Assembly (NCBI GenBank): GCA_965223945.1 | Contig: CBDCXW010000007.1 | Span: 1,502 to 65,501, forward strand | From: Dehalococcoidia bacterium | GTDB lineage: Bacteria; Chloroflexota; Dehalococcoidia; Lucifugimonadales; CATQGZ01 | DNA: 64,000 nt | Direction: 5' to 3' | In this document: one piece after another, positions 53,167 to 62,860 of the stretch | Numbering within the stretch: position 1 is the stretch's first letter | Layout: every line of letters begins with the position of its first letter | Position numbers and translations under genes: made by a program | Notes under the pieces: model-generated | What the model saw: only the letters and a program-made list of their open reading frames with translations | What the model was told of the DNA's origin: nothing | The model's database searches: none

Positions 53167-54363
53167 GGATGCTCTGAATAAGTCCCGGTGGTTTGCGGGA
53201 TAGTAACATAGGGCCAAGGCCTGAAGACGTGGGAGGCGAGGCAATGAACCAGCCGACGTTTGCGGACTTGGACTACGAGAGCAAGAAGCGAAAGACTCGC
53301 AGGGAGAAGTTCCTTGAGCGCATGGATGGACTGATCCCGTGGGAAGAGTTGGAAGAGCGCATCCGACCGTTCTATCCCAATGCTGGCCGAGGTCGGCGTC
53401 CCTACGAGTTGTCGGCGATGCTTCGCATACACTGCGTGCAGTTGTTCTACAACCTGAGCGACCCTGGGATGGAGGACATGCTCTACGAGGTCGAATCGGT
53501 GAGGCGGTTCGTAGGGCTGAGACTGCCTGGGCCGCTGCCGGACGAGACGACGATTCTGAACTTCCGCCACCTGCTGGAAGAGCATGCGTTAGGCTCGGGT
53601 CTGTTCGAGGAGATCAACCGCTATCTGGAGTCCAAGGGTCTCCGTCTTCAGGAGGGGACGATAGTGGACGCGAGCATCATAGCGGCGCCCTCATCGACGA
53701 AGAATCGGGCTAAAGAGCGCGACCCCGAGATGCACCAGACGAAGAAGGGTAACGAGTGGCACTTCGGGATGAAGGTGCACATCGGTGTGGACTCGCAGAC
53801 GGGAGTGGTGCACAGCATGACCACGACATCTGCGAACGTGCATGACCTGACTGAGTTGCCCCGGTTGCTGCACGGTGGGGAGTCTCAGGTGTGGGGAGAT
53901 GCTGGGTATCAGGGAGTTGACAAGAGGCCGGGCAACCGGGGCTTGGATGTGGAGTGGCAGGTCGCGATGAGGCCCGGCCAGCGTCGGAAGCTGGAGCCTG
54001 AGAGTCCTGAGGCGGTGTCGGAGAAGCGCAAAGCGTCGGTCAGAGCTAAGGTGGAGCATCCGTTCCTGTACATCAAGCGGCACTTCGGCTACGCCAAGGT
54101 CCGCTACAGGGGACTGTCCAAGAACACGCAGCGGCTGATGACGCTGCTGGGGTTTGCCAACTTGATGAGGGCCGAACAGTACCTGGCGGCGTGAAACCTT
54201 GTATAAGTGCGCCCAAAATCAGGCCTAACGGCGGCGAAACGCCCTGTCAGGGCCGGTTGTAGGCCGAGATTAACCCCCACCACGGCGCCATAAGGCAATT
54301 CAACGCCCCCAAAACCACTCCGGTCAACTCGGCCCAGCCTGAAGCCGATTGTTCAGAGCATCC
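53167..54363 (+). mobile_element. IS5-family insertion sequence, 1197 bp, copy 2
   Basis: Same IRs and CTAG duplication; transposase differs from copy 1 at one residue (RRGK vs RREK). Confidence 0.95.
53244..54194 (+). CDS. IS5-family DDE transposase
   Basis: Same motifs as copy 1. Confidence 0.95.
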   Translation: MNQPTFADLDYESKKRKTRREKFLERMDGLIPWEELEERIRPFYPNAGRGRRPYELSAMLRIHCVQLFYNLSDPGMEDMLYEVESVRRFVGLRLPGPLPDETTILNFRHLLEEHALGSGLFEEINRYLESKGLRLQEGTIVDASIIAAPSSTKNRAKERDPEMHQTKKGNEWHFGMKVHIGVDSQTGVVHSMTTTSANVHDLTELPRLLHGGESQVWGDAGYQGVDKRPGNRGLDVEWQVAMRPGQRRKLEPESPEAVSEKRKASVRAKVEHPFLYIKRHFGYAKVRYRGLSKNTQRLMTLLGFANLMRAEQYLAA

Positions 54364-54552: not shown

Positions 54553-55788
54553 CTAACCGTCAGGGAGGCCAAAGTGGACGAGCACCCTGGGCTTGGGCGG
54601 CGGAGGGTCTGGGCCGTTGTCGAGGTGGTCGGGGGGTTGGTCGGCGGCGGCGATGAGGGCGAGCCTCAGCTTCTCCTTGTGGTCCATGGCCCCCATGTAG
54701 CCCACCCTGGCCGTGGCCTTGTCGCTGTATATGTAGACGAGGGCGTTGTAGCCGTAGGTGTGCCGGCCGAAGGAGTCGTCGTCTGGGGGATCGGGGACCC
54801 GACAGCTCGGGCAGGGATCGTAGGGCTGGCAGGTATCGTGGTCGGAGTGGACGGCGGCCCTCTGAGCCTCAATCTGGTCGACTTTGTAGTCCAAGACGGC
54901 CTGGTTGGCGGCGCTCTTGGTCTCGTCGTCTCCGAATATGTGTACGAGGGCTTTGTCGCCGTAGCGGTCGCGTCGGTAGTCCTCTTCGCCGTAGCTGTCG
55001 AAGTCGTAGGTGTGGTCTTCGGGATACTCGAAGTACTTCCACTCCGGCTTCCGCGGCGTCTTCCAGGGCGTGGCCGCGGACACCGTGTCGTGGTCGGAAG
55101 CGGGCTGGCGCGCGGCCGGCTGCGGCGCGGGCACGCAGGGTGTCTGGTCGGAGGAAAGGCTCACGAGCCTATCGGCGGCGTCCATCCTCTGGTGGGTCTT
55201 GAAGCCGGTGAGGACGCCGCGCATGACGTCGGCGTAGAAGCGGACGATGTCCCTGCCGTCGTTGGTCTCCTGCCGGACGATCTCATCGAGGGAGGTTCCC
55301 ACGTCGGCGGCGCCCACGGCGCCGGTGTGTAGGGGAGCGAGGGTGAGCAGGGGAGCGAGGGATGGGTTCCCGCCTTCGCGGGAACGACGGTCCGGGCCGC
55401 GGGAACGACGGGGGGTGCTGTCTTTGGCGAGGGCTCGCGCCATCTTGGGGTCGAGCCTGGCGAGTTGCTTTCCGGTTTCGTTCCTGTGGTGATGGTTGGC
55501 TCCTTCGATCTCCCCCATCATGACGGAGAAGAGGAAGCTGATGACGCGGTCTCCGTCGTCGGTCTCGTCGCGGACGACGTCGGCGAAGGAGCTGTCCTGT
55601 TGGAGGATGATGAGCTGCTTCGCGGCGTCGACGCGGTGGTGGACCCTGGCACCTTCGAAGTCTCCCTCCATGGTGGAGAGGAAGAACCGGACGATGAGCC
55701 TTCCGCCCTGGGTCTTCTCGCGGACGATGTCAGCGAGGGAGGGAGCAGGGGCGTGGGGTAGTGGTGCTGTCTGGGCTTCAGGGAACAT
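54553..55788 (-). CDS. Hypothetical protein with three copies of a small-terminase-like helical module
   Basis: SLADIVREKTQGGRLIVRFFLSTMEG..HHRVDAAKQL / SFADVVRDETDDGDRVISFLFSVMMG..HHRNETGKQL / SLDEIVRQETNDGRDIVRFYADVMRG..HQRMDAADRL; ATG 7 nt after TATAAT. Confidence 0.7.
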   Translation of the reverse strand: MFPEAQTAPLPHAPAPSLADIVREKTQGGRLIVRFFLSTMEGDFEGARVHHRVDAAKQLIILQQDSSFADVVRDETDDGDRVISFLFSVMMGEIEGANHHHRNETGKQLARLDPKMARALAKDSTPRRSRGPDRRSREGGNPSLAPLLTLAPLHTGAVGAADVGTSLDEIVRQETNDGRDIVRFYADVMRGVLTGFKTHQRMDAADRLVSLSSDQTPCVPAPQPAARQPASDHDTVSAATPWKTPRKPEWKYFEYPEDHTYDFDSYGEEDYRRDRYGDKALVHIFGDDETKSAANQAVLDYKVDQIEAQRAAVHSDHDTCQPYDPCPSCRVPDPPDDDSFGRHTYGYNALVYIYSDKATARVGYMGAMDHKEKLRLALIAAADQPPDHLDNGPDPPPPKPRVLVHFGLPDG

Positions 55789-56211: not shown

Positions 56212-58193
56212 TCACTGATCGCAGAACCCCAGCCCTGTAAGCCGCTTCAATCTTTCACGCAATGCCGTCGGGACACATCCTGTCAAACCCTCGTTCCCCA
56301 CCAGAAGCAACTCCTTCAACTCTTCAAGAGCCTGCAACTCCGATGGCAACTCGCCACGCAAGCCGTTTGAGGTCAGCATCAAGTGAGTCACTCGGCCACT
56401 TTCGTGGTTCACGACCACTCCCTGCCATCTCCGCATGCTGACATCGCTAATCCAATTCTGACTACGCCTCCATTCAGTCCCACCTGTCGCATCGAACAGT
56501 GCAGCCAATGCGGCGCGGTCTTCCGAAGACTCATTCGCAGGCATTGGATAGCCACAATTCTTGTCAAAGTCCCGATTCTCAACTACCTCCAAAGCCGCAA
56601 AAAAGATGCACATGGGGTAATGCGGTTGCGCAGAGGAAAGTTCCCATCGTGATAGAACCATTCTCCGTCTAATGCTACGGCACCCGTTCTATACCCTTCT
56701 TTCGGGCTAAGGAACTGCTCAGCTTTAAGGCCTAAGGCACGAAGAGCTGAGACTGTGGTGCCCGTAGAAGACGGGCTGCCAGCCTCCCGTACTATAAGAA
56801 GGTACCCGGGCTCAGGGGTATAGGGTGTCTGGGAGTAAGGGCGGTAGAGATTCGCAAAATCTTCCACACCCCCGATGAAGTGGCTCATAATGGCGTTGAA
56901 GTTGTCGAACCACCGCTCGGCGGCCTCCCTCTCGCTTCCCGCGTCTCCAACAATCTCGTAAACCTGGGTCGGAAAGCTCTCAACAGTCCCATCAGGCGAC
57001 TTAATTTGAGACATGAAGAAAAGATTTCGCCGGCCAAATTCAGTAACGGTAAAACTGCCAAGCTTTCGCAGTGCTTCAAGGTCACGCTTGTACAGCATTT
57101 CAAAATCGTCAGCATCATTTTCCATAAAACTTCTTATAAGTATTCCCTCGCCATCTGCCTTTGCAAGATAAGCAAAAGTCTCCAGCATCCCCCTGTGAAC
57201 GTGACGTTGGTCGGCTACGATGGGTTCGTAATTATCGACAACTTTATCCACAGTATCATAAGCCTTCCCATAACAGGACACGCATACACCCTTATAAATC
57301 CCTAAATCGTCTAGGATTCTATCCAGGCTGTCAACTTCCCAGTTGATTACATGCTTTCCGTCGGCTTTTTTCTCAATGTCAATTGCGTTCATCAGAAGCG
57401 GGATGGCCTGGACGGATGCCAGCTTGACGTCTGAAGGCCAGTTGTTTGGGCTGTATTTGCTTGCCAGAAAACTTTCATTACTGAAAAGCCTGCTGTCAGC
57501 CCAGTCCAGAACGTTCTGCTCGTCCGGGCTCAGGCCGTCGCCGATGAAATCGAGGCCCGCCGGATAGCTGGAGACGGCCTCGACCAGCAGCGGGGAATAG
57601 CCTGCCAGAGCGGGGTCGACCGACGGCGTGGGCACGGGAGTGTTCGTGGGAGTGGGGGTAGGCGTCGGCGTGGACGTGGGGAGTGGAGTGGCGGTGGGTA
57701 CCGGAGTCTCCGTTGCCGTGGGAACGGGGGTGTTCGTGGCGGTTGCCGTGTGGGTGGCTGTGGGGACCGCGGTGCCGGTCGCCCTCGGGACGGGCGTCGA
57801 AGCGGTCGTGGGAGCCTTCGTTGCCGTGGAAACGGGACTGGGTGTCTCCGTGGCCGTGGGGGACGACGTTGGAGTGTCCGTGGGGACCGGCGCTAGCGTG
57901 GGCGTGCGAGTCGAGGTGGGCGTGGGAGTCGGAGCCTGCGCTGGGGTGGGCGGCTGCGTGGAAGTTGGAGTCGGTGAGTGAGCCGGTGCGACCTCCACTG
58001 CGACTGCCATTACAGGCGTAACCGTGGGAGCGGAAGCCGGGGCTTTCAGGGCTGCGCTTGCCGGAGCGGTCGGCGCGGAGAGAGGCGTGTCGGTGGGCGC
58101 AGGGGCTGGCGCACCAGTCTGGTCGTCCCCGCAGGCGACGACGGCCAGCATGATGATCGCTGTCAATGCAAGGGCGAGAGGCCTCACGTACAC
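56212..58193 (-). pseudogene. Lipoprotein with Pro/Thr-rich stalk, low-GC middle domain and C-terminal LRR cap; frameshift near 56600-56620
   Basis: Lipobox VVACG; (PT)n linker; downstream frame has DRAALAALFDATGG..W..W.GV..RVTHL.L..NGLRGELPSEL; GTG start with GGAGG RBS. Confidence 0.7.
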
Positions 58194-58541
58194 GCCTCCA
58201 TTCTCACGAGGCTCTGGTTGGGCTCCTTTACCGGGATTCCCCATATTGGCAGTCTTCAGGCTCAGAGGCCAGCCTAAATGAGATGGTAGTATCATAGTCA
58301 GGTCCTGCAAGGCCAGTCAGTCTCCAGTCTATACAATAAGGGATGCGTTTCTTGTCGTGAACCATGCTTCTTGTCCATCTTTGTCGTCTTCGGGCCCCGC
58401 CAATGGGGTGAAAGCGCATTGAAGACAAGCTGACTCCCCCCTAGATTCCTCCCTCCGCTGGCGCTGCGTTCGGAATGACAATTCGGGGGTCCTCACGATT
58501 CGAACCATGGAGACTGAACAGTACGGGGAGTGGGTTCCGGC

Positions 58542-58570
58542 TTGACAGGACGTACATGCGTTCTTATAAT
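58542..58570 (+). promoter_or_regulatory. Consensus sigma70 promoter with LexA-like box, upstream of the terminase
   Basis: TTGACA-ggac-GTAC-atgc-GTTC-t-TATAAT, exact consensus hexamers, 17-nt spacer. Confidence 0.75.
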
Positions 58571-58641
58571 GGATGCGAGAGGGACGGACCCCGAGGGGCT
58601 GCAGCATGCCCCGAAACCGAAGTTGGGATGCATCTCAACAC

Positions 58642-59964
58642 ATGTCCGACCACCTTTCGACCCGCCGGCCCGAGGGGCCCACGGACCCCGTCAGCTTCGT
58701 GGAGGAGACCCTCGGAGAGGAACCCCACCGCAAGCAGACCGACATCCTGAGCGCAGTCGCCCGGTCCCGCCGGGTCTCCGTCGTCGGATGCCACGGCTCG
58801 GGCAAGGACTGGGCCGCCGCAAGAGCCGTCCTCTGGTGGCTCCACTCACACTCCCCCGCCAAGGCCATAGTCACCGGCCCGACCACGCGCCAAGTCGACG
58901 ACATCTTGTGGAGGGAGATCAGGACTGCCCACGGCCACGCCGCACACCGCCTGCGGGGCCGCGTCTTCCGGACCTCCCGGTACGAGATCGACGACCAGAC
59001 CTTCGCCATCGGATTCTCCACCAGCTCCCCGTACAACCTACAGGGCTTCCACTCCCCCAACCTGATGGTCGTCGTCACCGAGGCCCACGCCGTCCCTGGG
59101 ACCGACATCGACGCCCTCAGGCGCCTCAACCCCGCCCTGACCCTCATGACCGGCAACCCCCTCGTGTCGGCCGGACCCTTCTACGACTCCCACCACTCGA
59201 AGCGGGCGATGTACGACACCGTGCGGATCGGCGCGGGCGACATCCCCAACCTCACCCGCCTCGCCGTGCCCGGCATGGTCGCCGCGGAGCACGTCGCCGA
59301 CCGCAAAACCGAATGGGGCCGGAGCGACGCCATGTACGTCGGCGGCGTGCTCGGCAGGTTCCCGGACAACCTCAACGACGCCGTCGTACGCCTCCGCGAC
59401 GCGACCGGCGCAGCCGAGAGGAGCCTCCAGCCAGAGGGAGAGGTCGTCGTCGCGTGCGACGTATCCCGCTTCGGACAGGCGAAGACCGTCGTCGTCAGGC
59501 GGCAGGGCCCGGTCGCCAGGATCGTCTGGAGAGTGCGAGGCCGCGACACCATGAGCATCGCCGAGTTCCTCGAGTCTTACTGCGACAGGGAGAGGGTCGA
59601 CAGCCTCGTAGTCGACGACTCCGGCGTGGGCGGAGGGGTCGTCGACAGGCTCAAGCAGCTCCGACTCCCCCACACCAGGCTCGTGCCCTTCGTCGGCGGC
59701 AAGAAGGCCAGGAATCCCGACCGCTTCGCAAACCTGATCACCGAGGCCTGGTTCGCCATGGGGAGGAGGTACGAGGAGGGAACGCTCGACACCGACGACG
59801 ACCCCGCCCTCATCGCCCAGGTATCCACCCGGAGGTGCCACCATCCGCGCGGCGGGGCTATGGCTCTCGAGAGCAAGGACGGCAAGCGCGATTCGCCCGA
59901 CGAGGCCGACGCCCTCGCCATGACCTTCGCGGTGTCCAGAGGAGGCTTCAAGATATGGATCTGA
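58642..59964 (+). CDS. Phage terminase large subunit-like protein (orphan)
   Basis: Walker A VVGCHGSGKD, variant Walker B VVVTEAH, motif III TGNP, RNase-H-like ACDVSRFG / VVDDSGVGGG / SPDEADAL; start approximate. Confidence 0.85.
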   Translation: MSDHLSTRRPEGPTDPVSFVEETLGEEPHRKQTDILSAVARSRRVSVVGCHGSGKDWAAARAVLWWLHSHSPAKAIVTGPTTRQVDDILWREIRTAHGHAAHRLRGRVFRTSRYEIDDQTFAIGFSTSSPYNLQGFHSPNLMVVVTEAHAVPGTDIDALRRLNPALTLMTGNPLVSAGPFYDSHHSKRAMYDTVRIGAGDIPNLTRLAVPGMVAAEHVADRKTEWGRSDAMYVGGVLGRFPDNLNDAVVRLRDATGAAERSLQPEGEVVVACDVSRFGQAKTVVVRRQGPVARIVWRVRGRDTMSIAEFLESYCDRERVDSLVVDDSGVGGGVVDRLKQLRLPHTRLVPFVGGKKARNPDRFANLITEAWFAMGRRYEEGTLDTDDDPALIAQVSTRRCHHPRGGAMALESKDGKRDSPDEADALAMTFAVSRGGFKIWI

Positions 59965-59987
59965 GGCGGCGCCCCCGGCGCCGGTGG

Positions 59988-60099
59988 GTAGGGGCGCTCG
60001 TGCGCGCGGGCACTGGGGAGGACGGGTTTGAAACCCGCCTCTACGGCACGTCAGGGAAATGGCGCAGGGGATGGGTTCCCGCCTGCGCGGGAACGACGG
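59988..60099. repeat. REP cluster (GTAG-type and GGGTTCCCGCCTGCGCGGGAACGAC)
   Basis: Palindromes related to those at 8366 and 55361. Confidence 0.65.
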
Positions 60100-60202
60100 A
60101 GGTGCGCCGTGGGCGTTCGTTGACCGGTTCAGGGGCGTACCCTACAATCTTGAAGACCCCCGAACACCCAATCCACGGCGTTCCTGCCTGATGTGAGGCC
60201 TC

Positions 60203-62860
60203 ATGACCGGAGACGAGATCAGAGAGTCGTTCCTCAGCTATTTCGAGAGTAAGGGCCACCTGCGGGTCGCCAGCTCGTCCCTGATTCCCGTCGGCGATCC
60301 CACCCTGCTGCTGACCAATGCCGGCATGGTGCAGTTCAAGCCCTACTTCACCGGGGAGACGGCCCCCCCAAACCGGCGGTTGACGACAGCCCAGAAGTCC
60401 TTCCGAACGGTTGATATCGACGAGGTCGGCGACGCCACGCACCTGACCCTGTTCGAGATGCTGGGCAACTTCAGCATCGGTGACTATTTCAAGAAGGATG
60501 CCATAACCTTCGCGCTGGAGTTCGTTACCGAAAAGCTGGGCCTGCCGCAGGAGCGGTTTTCGGCCACCATATTCGAGGACGACGACGAGGCGCGCGACCT
60601 CTGGCTGAGGGCCGGAATCCCCGCCGACCGCATCTTCCGTTTCGGCGAGGAGGACAACTGGTGGGGCCCGCCGATACACGGGACCGAGGGCCCGTGCGGG
60701 CCCTGCAGCGAGCTGCACTACGACTTCGGAGCTGGCAGGGGATGCGGCAAGCCGGGCTGCGCGCCGAACTGCGCCAACGTGATGAACGAGCACGGCGATA
60801 CATGCAGCCGGTACGTCGAGCTGTGGAACCTGGTCTTCATGCAGTTCGACCGCCAGCCGGACGGCTCCCTCCCTCCACTGCCCGCTCCCAGCGTCGACAC
60901 CGGAATGGGGCTGGAGCGTGCCGCCGTCATCCTTCAGGACGTCGATACGATCTACAAGACCGACCTGTTCACGCCGCTGATCGCCAAGGTAGAGGCCCTG
61001 AGCGGCAGGAGGTACGGCGAGGACCACGACACCGACTACGCGATGCACGCGGTCGCTGAACACGGCCGCAGCGCTACGTTCCTGATCGCCGACGGGGTCG
61101 TCCCCGGCAACGAGGGGCGTGGGTACGTCCTGCGCAGGGTAGTGCGCCGCGCCATCAGGCATGCGCGCCGCATCGGCATCGACGGTCCCTTCCTCCAGGA
61201 CGTCTCAGACGCTGCCGTCGCCGTCATGGGGAACGCCTACCCGGAGCAGGTACGCCACCGCGAGTTCATTCACACAGTGCTCCGTCTCGAGGAGGAGAGG
61301 TTCCAGCAGGCTTACTCCAACGGCTACGCCGTGCTCAGCGACGCCCTGAAAGGCGCGGAGTCCCTCCCGGGCGACGTGGTCTTCAGGCTCTGGGACACAT
61401 ACGGGTTCCCGGTCGAGATGACTCAGGAGATCGGACGGGAGGCCGGAGTGGAGGTCGATCTCGAAGGCTTCGAAAGGGAGATGGCAAGCCAGCGGGAGCG
61501 GGCGAGGGCCAGCGGCCAGTTCGGCGGAGACCGTGCCAAGATTCGCGTCTACGAGAGCCTGGGCGTCGGCGCCACGAAATTCCTGGGCTACGACCAGTTG
61601 AACGCGTCATCGGTCGTGGTTGGACTGGTGTCGGGGGGCGAGGCAGTCAACGAGGCCTCTGAGGGGGACGACGTGGAGGTCGTCCTCTTGGAGACTCCTT
61701 TCTACGCCGAGGGCGGCGGTCAGATCGGCGACGCGGGAGACCTCGCCGGGCCCCGCGGACGGATAGAGGTCAGCGACACGCGGATGGCGATGCCGGACGC
61801 GATCTTCCACTTCGGCGCCGTCACCAGGGGGACTATCGCTGTCGGCGACACCCTCGACGCCTCGGTCGATCAGGTTCGCCGGGAGGACACGGCGCGCAAC
61901 CACACCGCCACTCATCTCCTGCACGCGGCGCTCAGACAGGTGCTCGGCCCCCACGTCAGACAGGCCGGATCGCTCGTGGCGCCTGACCGGCTCCGGTTCG
62001 ACTTCAGCCACGTCCAGCCGGTGACCCGCGACGAGCTCTGGCAGGTCCAGCTCCTCGTTAACGAGAAGATCAGGCAGAACGCGCGCGTAATCAAGGGAGA
62101 GGACGCCTACACCGAGGCCGTAAGGCGCGGCGCGCTGGCCTTCTTCGGCGACAAGTACGGCGACCAGGTGCGCCTGATCGAGATCGCGAACGGTGAGACG
62201 TTCAGCTTCGAGGTGTGCGGCGGCACCCACGTCCACCATACCGGCGAGGTGGGCGCGGTCTACGTTCTCGGCGAGTCCAGCATCGGGGCGGGCATGCGCA
62301 GGATCGAGGCGGTCAGCGGACGCTCCGCCGAAAGAATGGTCTGGGACAGGTTCGACATGGAGGACAGGCTGGCCCTGAAGCTCCAGGCGGGTCTGCCCGA
62401 CATCGAGACTCGGATCGATAGCCTCATCGACGAGACCGGCAGGCTCGCACGCAGCAACCAGGCCCTCGAGCGCAGACTCGCGCTTCGAGACGCAGAGGGC
62501 CTGCTGGAATCTCGACAGGACGTGGACGGCGTCACGGTCCTTTCGGCGCGCGCCGACGCCTCAAACATCGAGTCCCTTCGCGAGACCGGCGACTGGCTGC
62601 GGGACAAGCTCGGAAGCGGTGTGGTCGTGCTTGGCTCGGTTCTCAACGACCGACCCATGCTGATAGCCATGGTAACTTCCGACCTGGTCGAGAAGGGCTT
62701 CGACGCGACCAGCATCGCCCGAGGCGCCGCCAAGGCCATCCAGGGCGGAGGCGGAGGCAGGCCGGATGTCGCCCAGGCAGGCGGCAAGCTGGCCCACAAG
62801 CTGGACGATGCCCTCGGTCTCGTGCCCGCGCTGGTCCGCGAGAAGAGCGGAGCCGGTTGA
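60203..62860 (+). CDS. alaS: Alanine--tRNA ligase
   Basis: LLTNAGMVQFK, FEMLGNFS, DTGMGLER, NHTATHLL, CGGTH, GGGGRPDVAQAGG. Confidence 0.97.
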   Translation: MTGDEIRESFLSYFESKGHLRVASSSLIPVGDPTLLLTNAGMVQFKPYFTGETAPPNRRLTTAQKSFRTVDIDEVGDATHLTLFEMLGNFSIGDYFKKDAITFALEFVTEKLGLPQERFSATIFEDDDEARDLWLRAGIPADRIFRFGEEDNWWGPPIHGTEGPCGPCSELHYDFGAGRGCGKPGCAPNCANVMNEHGDTCSRYVELWNLVFMQFDRQPDGSLPPLPAPSVDTGMGLERAAVILQDVDTIYKTDLFTPLIAKVEALSGRRYGEDHDTDYAMHAVAEHGRSATFLIADGVVPGNEGRGYVLRRVVRRAIRHARRIGIDGPFLQDVSDAAVAVMGNAYPEQVRHREFIHTVLRLEEERFQQAYSNGYAVLSDALKGAESLPGDVVFRLWDTYGFPVEMTQEIGREAGVEVDLEGFEREMASQRERARASGQFGGDRAKIRVYESLGVGATKFLGYDQLNASSVVVGLVSGGEAVNEASEGDDVEVVLLETPFYAEGGGQIGDAGDLAGPRGRIEVSDTRMAMPDAIFHFGAVTRGTIAVGDTLDASVDQVRREDTARNHTATHLLHAALRQVLGPHVRQAGSLVAPDRLRFDFSHVQPVTRDELWQVQLLVNEKIRQNARVIKGEDAYTEAVRRGALAFFGDKYGDQVRLIEIANGETFSFEVCGGTHVHHTGEVGAVYVLGESSIGAGMRRIEAVSGRSAERMVWDRFDMEDRLALKLQAGLPDIETRIDSLIDETGRLARSNQALERRLALRDAEGLLESRQDVDGVTVLSARADASNIESLRETGDWLRDKLGSGVVVLGSVLNDRPMLIAMVTSDLVEKGFDATSIARGAAKAIQGGGGGRPDVAQAGGKLAHKLDDALGLVPALVREKSGAG

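Follow-up and report, generated by a model that had tools for sequence, protein, structure and literature searches.

A solo large terminase gene behind a predicted LexA-type operator, and a dispersed, perhaps GTA-like, set of head genes in a Dehalococcoidia genome

The window analysed here, a 64,000-nucleotide stretch of contig CBDCXW010000007.1 from a Dehalococcoidia bacterium (assembly GCA_965223945.1, genome G000 below), carries a large terminase gene (terL) with its own promoter, flanked on both sides by multi-copy repeats (Table 1). On balance, we lean towards the reading that this terL is an extra, selected copy of the packaging motor in a dispersed, SOS-induced, GTA-like system of marine Dehalococcoidia. 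Judged by sequence comparison, it descends from the lineage's own portal-linked terL.

Table 1. Features of the terL cassette and its surroundings (window coordinates)
Feature	Position	Strand	Remarks
Multi-copy intergenic repeats, left of cassette	58230..58500	.	
Consensus sigma70 promoter, TTGACA-17-TATAAT	58542..58570	+	12/12 match; 5′ edge of duplicated cassette
LexA-type operator GTAC-N4-GTTC (predicted)	58552..58563	+	between −35 and −10, layout as at lexA
Leader with conserved GGGACGGACCC motif	58577..58641	+	lacks 3′ arm and U-tract of terminator-like hairpin
Large terminase gene, 440 aa	58642..59964	+	no stops; stop codon is 3′ edge of cassette
Walker A GCHGSGKD (residues 49–56)	58786..58809	+	Asp replaces Ser/Thr after lysine
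Walker B MVVVTE (residues 142–147)	59065..59082	+	Thr replaces Asp; catalytic Glu147 retained
RNase H-like nuclease acidic residues D273, D325, D420, D423	59458..59910	+	conserved in 118–121 of 121 homologues
Multi-copy palindromic repeats, right of cassette	60010..60100	.	
alaS, incidental neighbour	60203..62860	+	own promoter at 60120–60148

The original prediction described the gene as standing alone, which is true of the locus but not of the genome. No phage gene besides terL appears in the ORF list of 48–64 kb of the window, and the nearest integrase-family match lies 58 kb away on the contig. Elsewhere in G000, on different contigs, there are two more terL genes (three in all), five scattered terS-like genes, one HK97-type portal, one protease and one capsid. 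The terL copies are designated C7 (the window copy), C3 (90.5% identical to it) and C4 (69%). The DNA that C7 and C3 have in common begins precisely at the −35 hexamer and ends with the stop codon, and multi-copy repeats flank both copies. C4 is the original terL locus of G000; its gene order (XRE, terS, a 97-aa gene, terL, portal, small gene) is syntenic with that of congener G002. IS21-like insertions with a target duplication have cut C4 terL from its promoter and first codons, and the sole portal of G000 contains a TAG at codon 278. The protease and capsid genes lie 22 kb from the C4 locus, beside a gene that we take to be rplY. Copy numbers have risen for terL and terS, whereas portal and capsid are mostly single. 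No adaptor, tail terminator, tail tube or tape measure was detected in G000, and no tape measure scored over the cut-off in five genomes; the neck and tail genes not found in G000 leave delivery unexplained, which counts against a GTA-like reading. Two side observations concern the terS-like genes. Specifically, tandem 11-bp repeats lie directly upstream of two terS genes in G000 and two in G002 (L153 1390–1460, L162, L154 and L163), G000 holding 18 such arrays, all intergenic; and a conserved 95–115-aa gene with no family match usually follows terS-like genes (L002 3813–4519 and other terS loci).

The open reading frame is intact, as had been claimed, and its product matches the terminase large subunit family PHROG 2 in a profile search (E 2e-27), with no match in Pfam, NCBIfam or PADLOC. 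The top structural match of its AlphaFold model (pLDDT 85.6) is the Sf6 large terminase gp2 (E 3e-21), with the predicted nuclease domain superimposing on that of gp2 at an rmsd of 2.4 Å. The protein has the architecture of a TerL, an N-terminal P-loop ATPase joined to a C-terminal RNase H-like nuclease. The further claim that the motifs of both activities are present is borne out by Walker A, Walker B, a TGN motif at residues 170–172 and the four nuclease aspartates. A TerS–TerL complex prediction scored 0.00, giving no answer either way. Assembled contigs of 152–292 nt, 88–97% identical and at a depth of 2–7, match stretches of terL in one presumed RNA run and in three RNA libraries from two studies; having no silent control and not separating paralogues, these data carry no weight here. 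The codon usage, previously called host-like, fits that description loosely, but GC3 (0.905) is at the 95th percentile of host genes and C-ending bias at the 99th.

The ATPase motifs of the window TerL read GKD and TE in place of the canonical Walker A GK[ST] and Walker B hhhhDE. TE is found in all 121 close homologues, portal-linked copies included, and Asp follows the Walker A lysine in 117 of them. To place these motifs more broadly, 150 representatives were taken at 50% clustering, and alignment of the 137 shorter than 620 aa left 125 with K and E in register; these 125 comprise 59 D/[TS], 58 [TS]/D, 4 G/D, 3 T/E and 1 D/D pairs of Walker A and Walker B residues, and no [TS]/[TS] pair. According to the accessible part of PMC9599734, the Walker A Ser/Thr and Walker B Asp normally hydrogen-bond; this bond, together with the reciprocal pairing, makes a compensatory swap the simple reading of GKD/TE. 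The 59 D/[TS] representatives may derive from one event. The D/T pair recurs in 19 of the 23 closest IMG/VR contigs (the other four were unparsed), and some of these contigs carry polymerase, primase or terS genes. The original prediction had thus read the TE correctly, but the TE is no argument for repurposing, being paired with GKD and present likewise in free phages. We therefore discarded it as a mark of a dead or repurposed ATPase; its occurrence in all close homologues and in free-phage terminases points to an old terminase subfamily used by phages. The reversed pair also offers a natural test of the Ser/Thr–Asp proton relay proposed for P-loop NTPases in the accessible part of PMC9599734.

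Between C7 and C3 terL, omega is 0.089 under a model that includes codon frequencies, and neutrality is rejected at p 1e-23. The dN/dS analysis proposed with the original prediction thus finds purifying selection (omega ~0.09), in agreement with the view that the gene is maintained rather than decaying. For the same pair, codon-model values are 0.075–0.089 and the NG86 estimate is 0.33, the latter inflated by the GC3 bias. Between congeners, omega is 0.012 for the capsid and 0.038 for alaS. Solo terL copies give 0.052 in G340 and 0.033 in G343, and independent terL amplifications in other lineages give NG86 values of 0.04–0.19. Furthermore, the window terL departs from its own clade at 1 of 178 conserved sites and at 13 of 106 variable sites, and its 90% cluster has 68 members, of which, among those listed, 14 of 15 keep all 12 motif residues checked. 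Close relatives include a full-length portal (414 aa, an 86-member cluster, 91% identical) and two portals truncated at other positions than that of G000, some possibly through assembly errors.

The neighbourhood of the cassette is repeat-rich, and its association with alaS is incidental. Synteny with alaS in relatives, which the original prediction had offered as a check, is absent: terL and alaS are adjacent in 0 of 24 other genomes (most loci with only 1.5 kb of flank), and a conserved link was discarded. An apparent empty-site joint of 58480–60020, present in three runs, is uninterpretable, lying between two multi-copy repeats with a spacer absent from G000. One contig from another study spans the terL stop codon (59893–60079), partly across repeats. 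G000 as a whole has ~595 genes in 91 near-identical families, the largest of which are transposases. Several neighbours to the left were noted in passing. A DDE transposase lies at 53244–54194 (+), and a lipoprotein is predicted at 56583–58151 (−); it has a long Pro/Thr linker, its C-terminal half is low in GC (0.45 at 57000–57500), and a short LRR-like gene fragment follows it at 56212–56661 (−). A 411-aa gene at 54553–55788 (−), with three N-terminal repeats, belongs to a family of about nine copies in the genome, one of them directly upstream of C3 terL; it has a leaderless promoter with a GAAC-N4-GTTC box over the start codon and an omega of 0.14 against its closest paralogue, and the family has no match in Pfam, PHROG, NCBIfam or PADLOC and no usable match in the ESM Atlas.

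The promoter was correctly called perfect, and the accompanying SOS box is confirmed at the level of its letters. In the 4.0-Mb genome, TTGACA/TATAAT with 17-bp spacing occurs in five copies only, the terL promoter among them. The box letters, GTAC-ATGC-GTTC, fill the spacer and have one mismatch to GAAC-N4-GTTC, a motif that reportedly also holds for LexA of Dehalococcoides. The G000 lexA gene carries one box right behind its −35 element, as at terL, together with a second box, and recA and ruvB carry LexA-type boxes too. The terL operator is akin to these host boxes and overlaps the promoter, as expected of a LexA regulon member. In Gram-positive bacteria, GAAC-N4-GTTC is the LexA motif (PMC3323433, in its accessible part). 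The layout of TTGAC plus box occurs 78 times in G000 against 1–4 times in each of five shuffles, far above chance but not particular to the window terL. Because ~55 of these 78 stand before members of a non-coding repeat family, a promoter of this type does not by itself prove a regulon. LexA control of the window terL is nevertheless likely, though such promoters abound in G000. Within G000, promoters of this type stand before terL C7, C3 and C4, before the protease–capsid pair and before three of the five terS genes (the last scored by eye). A matching layout is present upstream of 22 of 34 Dehalococcoidia terL loci, and the promoter pattern upstream of 10 of 13 capsid loci, the latter counted without a shuffle control. 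As a separate observation, the ~55 non-coding units are dispersed, ~300 bp long and each preceded by a strong, LexA-boxed promoter (for example, C1:182087, C7:127732 and C8:514951), and such boxed units are expanded in G000 relative to G002: counts of the strict pattern are 61 for G000, 5 for G002, 1 for G023 and 0 for the remaining 38 of 41 genomes. Downstream of the promoter, a terminator-like hairpin with a U-tract is found in the leaders of 12 of 22 loci and in that of the portal-linked C4 copy, with folding z-scores of just −1.3 to −1.6. Loss of this terminator as a trait specific to solo copies was discarded, since the terminator persists in the G340 solos and is absent from the portal-linked copy of G002.

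Across an order-wide sample of 201 genomes, in which kin are not independent, 71 have a terL match, 79 a capsid match, 65 both and 116 neither; 6 of the 71 terL genomes are without a capsid match, and 14 of the 79 capsid genomes without a terL match. Two or more terL matches (matches, not copy numbers) occur in 15 of the 71. Class-wide, terL is found in 21 of 301 genomes. Two genera offer natural contrasts in this survey: in genus g24, 7 of 8 genomes have the capsid and none matches the window terL, and in genus g9 terL is present in 5 of 5 genomes and the capsid in 2 of 5. The phylogenetic comparison proposed with the original prediction shows terL and capsid following the host: FastTree trees share 8 of 12 splits between terL and alaS and 16 of 22 between capsid and alaS, the single host marker used, with no conflict among splits with support of at least 0.95. 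Identities across host families are 69–70% for terL, 71–72% for portal, 75–77% for capsid and 69–72% for alaS, and integrase-family genes are at least 41 kb from head-gene units in the five genomes searched. In quick trees, made without a clade test, the solo terLs of four lineages (G000, G340, G342/G343 and G007) cluster with the portal-linked terL of the lineage concerned. From these sequences, solo terL evidently originated independently in four or more lineages, as cassettes that run from promoter to stop codon and are under purifying selection.

The nearest homologues of the window TerL are database proteins 84–94% identical that come without genomic context, followed by chromosomal Dehalococcoidia copies at 50–70%; free-virus TerLs reach 48–53% (IMG/VR), and the best GenBank phage match is 32% identical. 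The closest homologues of known context are thus chromosomal, contrary to what an origin in intact prophages would predict. Weakly supported branches place free-phage terLs within the wider Dehalococcoidia tree of terL, so a single domestication is not established. The phages of IMG/VR loci L172–L194, mostly of 36–45% GC, encode GKD/TE terminases close to the Dehalococcoidia enzymes and may be kin of the phage that was domesticated. As to source labels, related loci carry the name Dehalococcoidia and one close portal homologue that of SAR202, and one run containing a small share of the window is a sponge metagenome. The gene set is fuller in G004, where an adaptor, a tail terminator and a major tail protein lie among host genes. 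This cluster (L252 11734–17953, L031) was further seen to comprise head genes, six small structural-type genes and a 653-aa gene, and to end at what are presumably NADH dehydrogenase genes. G014 and G340 retain adaptor and terminator-like genes, and no adaptor was found in G000, G002 or G024.

These features invite comparison with known systems. Like the GTAs of Alphaproteobacteria (RcGTA and CcGTA), the Dehalococcoidia set has Caudoviricete-derived HK97-type head genes, occupies several loci, is inherited with the host and has no integrase nearby. Specifically, of six GTA criteria in the accessible part of bioRxiv 10.1101/2022.06.10.494566, three apply at the genome level, namely Caudoviricete-derived particle proteins (here for protein ancestry only), full endogenisation, over several loci, and mostly vertical inheritance (one host marker, alaS, with free-phage terLs nesting in the wider tree at weak support); the other three concern particles. 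The best structural match of the window TerL model is a headful-type terminase (Sf6), and headful ancestry is described for RcGTA terminases in the accessible part of PMC7947584. The terminator-like leader hairpin of Dehalococcoidia terL recalls CcGTA antitermination (PMC11150451, in part). Unlike these GTAs, the present system has a Chloroflexota host, a separate terminase lineage, predicted direct LexA control and terL and terS cassettes in multiple copies, and in this lineage it is without neck and tail genes; the structural gene set includes neck and tail-tube genes in G004, whereas G000 is without both and has the portal stop. The system likely works like a GTA, of which it is a putative member. 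With cf-PICIs, as described in the accessible part of PMC10085698, it shares TerS, TerL, portal, protease and capsid without a full tail, but its genes are dispersed and vertically inherited and form no mobile island; membership fails because no integrase lies nearby (five genomes) and G000, like G002 and G024, has no adaptor, which G014 and G340 do have. SaPI operon I (PMC3152322, in part) likewise places a packaging gene under the host SOS repressor, as predicted here, whereas in Dehalococcoidia no island is involved, and the genes for the large subunit and the capsid reside in the host. Finally, the free-phage PHROG 2 terminases of L172–L194 include the closest viral relatives (48–53% identical) and have the same swapped Walker pair, but they occur in phage genomes that encode a polymerase, a primase or a terS of their own and whose portals are larger.

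In the packaging-motor reading that we lean towards, DNA damage would trigger RecA-dependent cleavage of LexA, and the scattered units would be derepressed together. Procapsids would assemble from the host-encoded head genes, TerS would recruit TerL to DNA, and TerL would cut chromosomal DNA and pump it, headful-style and in trans, into the host-made capsids. The cassette would have been copied through recombination among the abundant flanking repeats, and the extra terL retained for dosage and as a back-up, the original copy having been severed from its promoter in an IS-riddled genome. The portal stop may currently disable the system in this strain. It counts against this reading, as do the neck and tail genes not found in G000, the amplification of terL and terS but mostly not of portal and capsid, the genomes that match only one of terL and capsid, and the 116 of 201 genomes that match neither.

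The broken portal and the neck and tail genes not found in G000 keep two other roles for the solo terLs in view. One, to which we give a low chance, is that they have become a portal-independent SOS enzyme, a nuclease or translocase that TerS would direct to damaged or foreign DNA with no capsid involved. Two solo terLs are intact in G000 beside the interrupted portal, portal truncations recur in close relatives, terL and terS amplify where portal and capsid do not, some terL genomes have no capsid match, and the stem of the solo clade is long (0.47) with 10 changes at otherwise conserved sites. Yet the capsid is kept in 65 of 71 terL genomes and strongly conserved in G000 (omega 0.012), the TerL has gained no new domain, the solo and portal-linked copies of G342/G343 are 96–98% identical, and GKD/TE is ancestral and shared with free phages. 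The arguments for repurposing do not survive, given that the TE is ancestral, packaging partners exist elsewhere in the genome and alaS synteny is not conserved. The other role is interference with phages, in which, on SOS or prophage induction, excess TerL and TerS would poison or redirect the packaging of related phages. Free phages with this terminase type do exist at 48–53% identity, a LexA-controlled terS has a precedent in SaPI operon I (PMC3152322, in part), and copy-number gains would suit a contest of dosage; but we rate this as rather unlikely, because there is no PADLOC match, both active sites are fully conserved although a pure decoy would need neither, evolution is slow and host-congruent rather than showing arms-race divergence, and the portals of related phages are just 23–28% identical to the host-type portal.

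It is also unlikely, in our judgement, that the window terL is a lagging remnant of a system once functional in ancestral lineages and now disappearing from this species, with the solos appearing selected because the loss is recent. Such loss would account for the IS insertion with target duplication at the 5′ end of C4 terL, the portal stop, the neck and tail genes not found in G000, the ~595 genes in near-identical, mostly transposase, families and the patchy distribution. It sits poorly with the window terL's own changes, which avoid conserved sites, with the predominance of full-length proteins among the listed members of its 68-member cluster, and with the independent amplifications elsewhere at NG86 omega 0.04–0.19. 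An ordinary prophage fragment or a cf-PICI-like, capsid-forming satellite that packages its own DNA and borrows tails is very improbable and largely refuted. Head genes without a tape measure, and the XRE and ImmA-like regulators beside the cluster in several genomes, would fit a satellite, but no unit in five genomes has an integrase nearby, no primase-replicase or HNH gene was noticed in the ORF lists, the genes lie on different contigs and have vertical trees, and the best phage matches are 32% (GenBank) and 53% (IMG/VR) identical.

Beyond the packaging-motor reading itself, we put forward a broader proposal, which is tentative and less likely than not. Host-associated SAR202-type Dehalococcoidia would carry a new viriform family in which the head module is split into single-gene, LexA-controlled cassettes, terL and terS are repeatedly amplified, and the ATPase has a reversed Walker Thr–Asp pair; the 11-bp repeat arrays would be packaging starts, a role that is a guess on our part; neck and tail would have been shed in this lineage, and tailless, DNA-filled capsids would form on DNA damage. 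A surface-level literature search found no description of a dispersed terminase and capsid system in Dehalococcoidia, and Chloroflexota are unmentioned in the accessible parts of the GTA literature checked for the phylum name. If true, this would be a GTA-like system in Chloroflexota that is modular, SOS-wired and partly tailless, and it would provide a route of gene exchange among uncultured symbionts.
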